Below, piece after piece: positions 3,552 to 4,347 of a DNA stretch of 64,000 bases; the stretch's first letter is position 1; every line of letters begins with the position of its first letter. The translations under genes and the position numbers were made by a program. The stretch is from assembly GCF_045037415.1 (NCBI RefSeq), contig NZ_CP173438.1; one strand, 5' to 3'. The notes under the pieces are model-generated. The model was not told where the DNA came from. It did not search any database and saw only the letters and a list, made by a program, of their open reading frames with translations. Origin of the DNA: Escherichia coli (GTDB taxonomy: Bacteria > Pseudomonadota > Gammaproteobacteria > Enterobacterales > Enterobacteriaceae).

Positions 3552-3645
3552 TGTACCGACCGGGCAGTGTTGCTGCCCGGTTCAAACATCATGGGATTCT
3601 GTGGTAAACTTCTCGCGATTTTGTGAAATCCTGGTTGAGGTATCT

Positions 3646-4347
3646 CTGAACACACCGGCACAGCTCTCTTTGCCACTTTATCTTCCTGACGACGAAACCT
3701 TTGCAAGTTTCTGGCCGGGGGATAACTCCTCTTTACTGGCCGCGCTGCAAAACGTGCTGCGTCAGGAACATAGCGGTTACATCTATCTCTGGGCACGCGA
3801 AGGCGCGGGGCGCAGCCATCTGCTGCACGCGGCTTGCGCGGAATTGTCGCAGCGTGGCGATGCGGTGGGCTATGTCCCGCTGGATAAACGCACCTGGTTT
3901 GTTCCGGAAGTGCTCGACGGTATGGAGCATTTGTCGCTGGTCTGTATTGACAACATTGAGTGTATTGCCGGCGATGAGTTGTGGGAGATGGCGATTTTCG
4001 ATCTCTACAATCGAATTCTGGAATCGGGCAAAACACGGTTGTTGATCACCGGCGATCGTCCACCGCGGCAGTTGAATCTGGGATTACCGGATCTCGCGTC
4101 GCGTCTCGACTGGGGGCAGATCTACAAATTGCAGCCACTTTCTGATGAAGATAAGTTGCAGGCGCTACAGTTACGCGCGCGTTTGCGTGGTTTTGAACTG
4201 CCGGAAGATGTGGGGCGTTTCTTGCTGAAGCGGCTCGACAGAGAAATGCGCACGTTGTTTATGACGCTGGATCAGCTGGATCGTGCGTCGATTACCGCGC
4301 AACGCAAGCTGACCATTCCTTTTGTGAAAGAAATTCTGAAGTTGTAG
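3646..4347 (+). CDS. hda: DnaA regulatory inactivator Hda (AAA+ family)
   Basis: ORF 3601..4347; functional Hda as I recall it begins at the CTG at 3646 ([19 protein letters not shown]...), 233 aa. Confidence 0.9.

Follow-up and report, generated by a model that had tools for sequence, protein, structure and literature searches.

In Escherichia coli MG1655, Hda stimulates the hydrolysis of DnaA-ATP together with the DNA-loaded clamp, an established activity known as RIDA (PMC5835720). The crystal structure of Hda with the beta clamp (PDB 5X06) uses a 233-residue numbering, in which the motif 6-QLSLPL-11 contacts the clamp cleft through residues L7, L9, P10, and L11, and the arginine finger is Arg153 (PMC5397184). 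Initiation of hda translation at a CUG codon is attributed to Su'etsugu et al. 2008 (JBC 283:36118), as this work is cited in EcoGene 3.0 (PMC3531124). The same resource lists yfjD as a second E. coli K-12 gene with a confirmed CTG start, which was predicted from conservation and inspection of the ribosome-binding site and then confirmed by start-codon mutagenesis (PMC3531124). AUU-initiated genes are also known in E. coli, namely infC, which encodes IF3, and pcnB (bioRxiv 10.1101/063800). The CUG start of E. coli hda is thus already known: it has been settled since its publication in 2008, was corrected in RefSeq, and stands in the reference annotation. What we add here is new but minor, and consists of the order-wide nucleotide invariance of this CTG, an explanation of the competing GTG as the TG of a probable promoter that a 1-nt accident puts in frame, and a compilation of wrongly called Hda N-termini.

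We analyzed a 64,000-nt stretch of the E. coli contig NZ_CP173438.1 (hereafter the window). In the six-frame ORF list, hda appears as a mechanical ORF at positions 3601–4347 (+), 248 codons (248 aa) long and opening at GTG 3601–3603, exactly as given in the original prediction, which had nevertheless placed the start of hda probably at CTG 3646, where the conserved Hda N-terminus aligns, and had pointed to a reported non-AUG start for this gene. Both the coordinates and the peptide quoted there were exact: CTG 3646–3648 lies in the same frame as GTG 3601, precisely 15 codons downstream, and is followed by the codons AAC ACA CCG GCA CAG CTC TCT TTG CCA CTT. In two strains, the RefSeq/PGAP annotation has hda begin at locus position 1696, which maps to window position 3646 (233 aa, WP_001307333.1). 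The MG1655 gene b2496 (2618075..2618776, minus strand; 233 aa, NP_416991.2) likewise has CTG as its first codon, and the window carries the same DNA around and upstream of this codon. The comparison with curated Hda sequences that had been proposed as a check therefore returns the CTG, in agreement with the comparative analysis described below, and the non-AUG start is borne out by EcoGene 3.0 in its citation of the 2008 work (PMC3531124).

The gene order around this ORF, with purM, upp, and uraA upstream and arsC/yfgD and bepA downstream, is that of the E. coli hda locus, and over the 950 nt around hda the window shares 100% identity with E. coli strain SK1144 and 98.7% with a K-12-type strain. 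The encoded Hda is 100% identical to MG1655 Hda at the protein level. As a 233-aa protein, it matches the NCBIfam equivalogs NF005982 (474.8 bits, cutoff 268) and TIGR03420 (281.7 bits, cutoff 194.8), as well as the Pfam families Bac_DnaA and Hda_lid, i.e., a DnaA-type AAA+ domain followed by a lid domain. Its best PDB match is 5X06 (Hda; E = 8e-157), and residue 153 in the 233-aa numbering is the arginine of Box VII (Arg153). The clamp-binding motif was expected at the extreme N-terminus, and this motif, of the QL[SD]LF type, does occupy residues 6–11 of the 233-residue protein (PMC5397184). On the basis of its identity to MG1655 Hda, the window protein is predicted to be the AAA+ protein that converts DnaA-ATP to DnaA-ADP with the DNA-loaded beta clamp in RIDA. 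Between hda and arsC/yfgD, positions 4334–4489 carry palindromic repeats of the REP/BIME type, which gave sub-threshold Rfam matches to naRNA4 (RF02564) on both strands (≤36.7 bits, gathering score 59.5).

Taken together, we consider it nearly certain that hda is translated from CUG 3646–3648 behind a GAGG(U) Shine-Dalgarno (SD) sequence and that GTG 3601 is not its start codon; this GTG is probably part of a promoter, and the weak CUG most likely keeps the Hda copy number very low. Literature and annotation establish which codon is the start, whereas its conservation and sequence context were computed here; the promoter, the transcription start, and the dosage-limiting role are proposals. The features on which this reading is built are listed in Table 1.

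Table 1 Features of the hda start region in the window.
Feature	Position	Strand	Basis or remark
GC-rich 11-bp hairpin after the uraA stop (3549-3551)	3558..3582	+	-21 kcal/mol, z = -2.9; conserved in alignment
Weak -35-like hexamer TTCAAA (putative)	3581..3586	+	Lies 18 nt before the -10 hexamer; inference; 4/6 match
GTG opening the mechanical ORF (start in the first, 248-aa annotation); rejected as start codon	3601..3603	+	Shares its TG with the putative extended -10; frame relative to hda not conserved
Extended -10 element TGgTAAACT (putative)	3602..3610	+	Conservation of TGnTA[A/G/C]ACT
Predicted transcription start	3617..3618	+	Promoter geometry, 6-8 nt after the -10
Shine-Dalgarno GAGGT	3637..3641	+	GAGG core 5 nt upstream of CTG; conserved block; duplex energy
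Start codon of hda, CTG (CUG)	3646..3648	+	Sequence, literature (PMC3531124), conservation
hda CDS as used in vivo	3646..4347	+	233 aa + TAG stop; encodes the DnaA inactivator Hda; RefSeq CDS coordinates mapped to the window
Beta-clamp-binding motif QLSLPL, codons 6-11	3661..3678	+	Sequence; PMC5397184; position 1 of the TIGR03420 profile aligns to Q6
TTG codon 9, rival start	3670..3672	+	Rejected

Next, we evaluated the conservation of the CTG across a comparative set of 87 sequences, i.e., the window and 86 loci from seven Enterobacterales families. The Enterobacteriaceae portion included the hda loci of 80 species and the window (81 sequences), and the other Enterobacterales DNA came from six genera (Yersinia, Serratia, Hafnia, Dickeya, Proteus, and Xenorhabdus, of the Yersiniaceae, Hafniaceae, Pectobacteriaceae, and Morganellaceae). 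CTG is the commonest codon of E. coli, and its occurrence inside an ORF is by itself trivial. At the hda start, it was nonetheless present in every sequence (81/81 Enterobacteriaceae, 6/6 other genera, 87/87 overall). Among the 31 codon columns occupied by Leu codons throughout the 81 sequences, the start CTG was the sole invariant one, the remaining 30 using 2–6 synonymous codons each. Since it never varies, not even to TTG, which is one transition away, the start CTG cannot be regarded as an ordinary Leu codon.

The substitution pattern on either side of the CTG points to the same boundary. For the 42 species with identical spacing upstream of the start, polymorphic sites were distributed 3/1/13 over the three codon positions of codons 2–16, versus 9/9/11 in the 45 nt upstream; coding-type substitution begins directly after the CTG, at codon 2. 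All 42 of these species carried an in-frame stop within the 45 nt upstream of the CTG. More broadly, 46 of the 81 species had no in-frame ATG, GTG, or TTG in the interval that separates the CTG from the closest stop upstream. In 15 of these 46, the first downstream canonical start was moreover found only at codon 30 or later; in these 15 species, therefore, no start other than the CTG can give a protein that includes the clamp motif. Within E. coli, 83 nt around the hda start were identical in 5,396 of 5,426 records, and a 31-nt probe covering the SD, the spacer, the CTG, and codons 2–4 was found without any change in 5,422 of the 5,426 genomes, while the same search with ATG, TTG, or GTG in place of CTG gave zero full-length exact matches among these 5,426 genomes. 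Outside Enterobacterales, called Hda proteins typically begin 1–8 residues before the Q of the motif (mode 3); the E. coli CTG start gives an offset of 5, within this range, and the GTG start an offset of 20. As a separate observation, the chromosome sequence deposited for E. coli O15:H18 strain ST69 (NZ_CP102488.1) has the hda CTG itself at position 1 (query 41–83 aligned to record 1–43), apparently because this assembly was rotated to begin at hda, a DnaA homologue, in place of dnaA.

The sequence immediately upstream of the CTG is consistent with initiation at this codon. A GAGG core separated from the CTG by a 5-nt spacer was found in 80 of the 81 Enterobacteriaceae sequences, GAGGT forming an invariant block of the alignment, and in the six other genera the CTG is also preceded by GAGG(TG). 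The predicted duplex with the anti-SD was strongest for CTG 3646 (−6.9 kcal/mol), followed by GTG 3601 (−4.0) and the TTG at codon 9 (−1.7). Against the background of 20-nt windows from the 64-kb sequence (mean −2.5, sd 2.3, with 3.2% reaching −7), the value for CTG 3646 falls within the top ~15%, just short of −7, while that for GTG 3601 is unremarkable. Another in-frame near-cognate codon, CTG 3631, was considered as a start and rejected, as it lacks an SD (+0.3 kcal/mol) and is unconserved. One counter-point comes from the non-Enterobacteriaceae families, which carry a GTG two codons upstream of the CTG, inside the SD itself (GAGGTG), and this GTG could in principle replace the CTG.

In the proposed mechanism, the 30S subunit would be positioned by the GAGG(U) sequence 5 nt upstream of the CUG, and initiator fMet-tRNA would pair with this codon through a first-position mismatch, giving a product predicted to begin Met-Asn-Thr-Pro-Ala-Gln and to present the clamp-binding QLSLPL at residues 6–11. 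Such initiation is inefficient: in E. coli reporters, CUG supports ~1–2% of the initiation obtained with AUG (bioRxiv 10.1101/063800), and 30S and 70S complexes are less stable on CUG than on canonical codons (PMC11497404). The predicted folding of the leader (3616–3680) was no greater than that of shuffled controls (z = +0.38), on which ground a structure-based regulatory element in the hda leader was rejected, and an Rfam scan of positions 3300–4600 returned zero families at the hda start region. Because the leader thus has neither excess structure nor an Rfam family, the low initiation efficiency seems to reside in the CUG codon itself. The inferred leader also includes a TTTT block that never varies among the 42 species sharing the modal spacing of 36 nt, a set that leaves out the window (35-nt spacing), in which the block was mapped by sequence to positions 3619–3622; this block might be an initial-transcribed-region element or a ribosome standby element.

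The nature of GTG 3601 becomes apparent when the alignment is extended further upstream. The motif TGnTA[A/G/C]ACT, which includes the TG of this GTG, was found in 81/81 species, with a freely varying n (T26/A22/G21/C12) and nearly invariant other positions, and the TTC of the −35-like hexamer was conserved at the same spacing. A related motif, TGnTAnnnT, is retained in each of the six other genera, also in Serratia and Proteus, where a gene other than uraA lies upstream, and this retention fits hda having its own promoter. The TG of TGgTAAACT is separated by a single base from a hexamer that has T1, A2, and T6, an arrangement that tolerates a weak −35. From these patterns we infer that TGgTAAACT is probably the extended −10 element of a sigma-70 promoter of hda. 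A consensus promoter scan of positions 3350–3750 made zero calls, the proposed promoter matching 8 of the 12 hexamer positions. The predicted transcription start at ~3617–3618 would leave a leader of 28–29 nt that does not contain GTG 3601, which would then probably lie upstream of the 5′ end of the hda mRNA. A DnaA box or a CRP half-site in the TGTG... stretch was also considered and rejected by eye, owing to a poor consensus match and a lack of conservation outside the TGn −10 motif.

Between the −10 element and the CTG lie 33 to 39 nt, with a mode of 36 nt (42/81), at which the TAA of the −10 hexamer becomes an in-frame stop. GTG 3601 is in frame with hda in E. coli and a few relatives because their spacer is 35 nt and not the usual 36. 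One locus of the set (L004; NZ_JAATUR010000003.1, labelled E. coli strain SCPM-O-B-8794) has the 36-nt spacing owing to a single extra C between the −10 and the SD, reading AAATCCCTGG in place of the AAATCCTGG found at window positions 3628–3633. In this record, the 3601-type GTG is out of frame and another GTG, 8 codons upstream, is brought into frame, and this natural frameshift shows that the stretch upstream of the CTG is non-coding. Further upstream, the hairpin that follows uraA is probably the uraA 3′ end or a partial terminator insulating hda; it has no U-tract, received zero calls in a terminator scan of positions 3350–3750, and its 3′ arm overlaps the −35-like hexamer by 2 nt.

These observations bear directly on the alternative starts. 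Translation from GTG 3601 would give the 248-aa protein, with the CTG as an ordinary internal Leu codon, and it has in its favor that this GTG is the first canonical start of the open frame, served as start in earlier annotation releases (747-nt model, Kim 2012 supplement), and is still chosen by gene callers that disallow CTG (248-aa model P0002, 3,510 member sequences). We nonetheless consider it very improbable, since neither the frame nor the openness of the upstream stretch is conserved, the −10 element itself supplying an in-frame stop in the 42 of 81 sequences with the modal spacing and 46 of 81 species offering no in-frame canonical start upstream of the CTG. The 45 nt concerned also show no codon periodicity, the SD of the GTG is weak, and the Hda equivalog profile does not cover residues 1–13 of the 248-aa ORF. 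As an internal Leu codon, the CTG would moreover be expected to drift synonymously like the 30 others, which it does not do, and both literature and RefSeq give the CTG. Even less credible is a start at the TTG of codon 9, which would produce the 225-aa protein that automatic annotation has sometimes assigned to Klebsiella, Serratia, and Pantoea. Although in 43 of the 81 species no canonical start comes earlier after the CTG than this TTG, and 225-aa models do exist in databases, codon 9 is something other than TTG in 38 of 81 (TTG 43, CTG 37, TTA 1), it has no SD, codons 2–8 evolve as coding sequence under purifying selection, and initiation there would delete Q6-L7-S8 and cut through the clamp motif.

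A combination of starts, in which the CTG gives the main 233-aa Hda and read-through or uraA-internal transcripts give a minor, GTG-started extended isoform in E. coli, appears improbable too, if somewhat less so than initiation at the GTG alone. In E. coli, GTG 3601 is in frame with zero intervening stops, and GTG is intrinsically a far better start codon than CUG (bioRxiv 10.1101/063800). The only hda-assigned transcription start in the Kim 2012 supplement is a weak one (2 reads), 620 nt upstream inside uraA, from which a transcript would contain the GTG, and read-through past the hairpin is plausible given its missing U-tract; these two features together leave room for some read-through transcripts that include the GTG. 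However, the SD at GTG 3601 is poor, a literature search found no published evidence for a longer isoform, and the 1-nt accident that puts this GTG in frame is absent from most relatives and from L004, labelled E. coli, with its 36-nt spacing, so that any GTG isoform cannot be a conserved function.

The choice of start decides whether the clamp motif sits at residues 6–11 of a 233-aa protein or behind a 15-residue extension, and it explains why automatic Hda annotation is inconsistent across Enterobacterales. Hda models in this order vary widely in length (221, 225, 233, 235, 238, 241, 248, 258, and 272 aa, among others; P0001–P0120), since CTG is not accepted as a start by most gene callers. 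The 235-aa models that are widespread in the six other genera start at the GTG within the SD (GAG-GTG). The NF005982 profile itself has 235 positions, the 233-aa Hda aligning to positions 3–235, and it appears to have been built on 235-aa models and hence to begin two residues upstream of the real start.

The conservation of an inefficient codon also raises the question of its purpose. Single-step changes from CTG to TTG, ATG, or GTG would leave the Hda protein as it is, yet the CTG is held, and this strict retention against one-step "improvements" argues that weak initiation at hda is selected, most simply to keep Hda scarce. Given that CUG initiates at ~1–2% of the AUG level, limiting dosage is most likely its purpose, with Hda held at a very low copy number. 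The 2008 study reportedly found ~100 Hda molecules per cell along with the CUG start, and is said to have suggested that this codon restricts the Hda level. A further idea, which we regard as doubtful, is that the weakness of CUG is a selected regulatory device through which Hda synthesis would be tuned by the level of IF3 or the status of ribosomes, beyond a mere dosage limit; such tuning by IF3 is conceivable because IF3 discriminates against near-cognate starts. If this were true, RIDA capacity, and hence replication initiation, would be coupled to the translational state of the cell. Of the two ideas, only this regulatory coupling would be new, as the dosage idea was reportedly already proposed in the 2008 paper.

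Beyond Enterobacterales, Hda orthologues such as that of Shewanella (PDB 3BOS) belong to the same family and also carry the clamp motif a few residues from the N-terminus. The three nearest non-Enterobacterales Hda examined (52–63% identity) have called GTG starts (L091, 169–171; L092, 301–303; L093, 301–303), each with an in-frame stop close upstream. In L091, only 1 nt separates the GAGG core from the called GTG, a distance too short for a working SD, which makes this call questionable. From these sequences, the CTG start appears to be specific to Enterobacterales, and the GTG calls, in a sample of three that includes the questionable L091, offer hints that hda favors non-AUG starts more widely.

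Among the other non-canonical starts of E. coli, infC and pcnB resemble hda in being chromosomal genes with rare start codons, and they follow the same logic as the proposed Hda dosage. The AUU of infC makes its translation IF3-sensitive, and that of pcnB limits the level of poly(A) polymerase. They differ from hda in using AUU and not CUG, and in that IF3-dependent autoregulation is demonstrated for infC, the hda case being an analogy only. Closer in its start codon is yfjD, which like hda is a chromosomal CTG-start gene that was earlier mis-annotated at a canonical codon; unlike hda, it encodes an unrelated protein, and its wrong start, a TTG at codon 9, lay downstream of the true one, whereas for hda it lay upstream. 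Overall, the closest system is hda of E. coli K-12 (b2496, NP_416991.2), which is the same gene: the window comes from another E. coli strain, and the two share start codon, SD, and position of the clamp motif, with no difference of substance.
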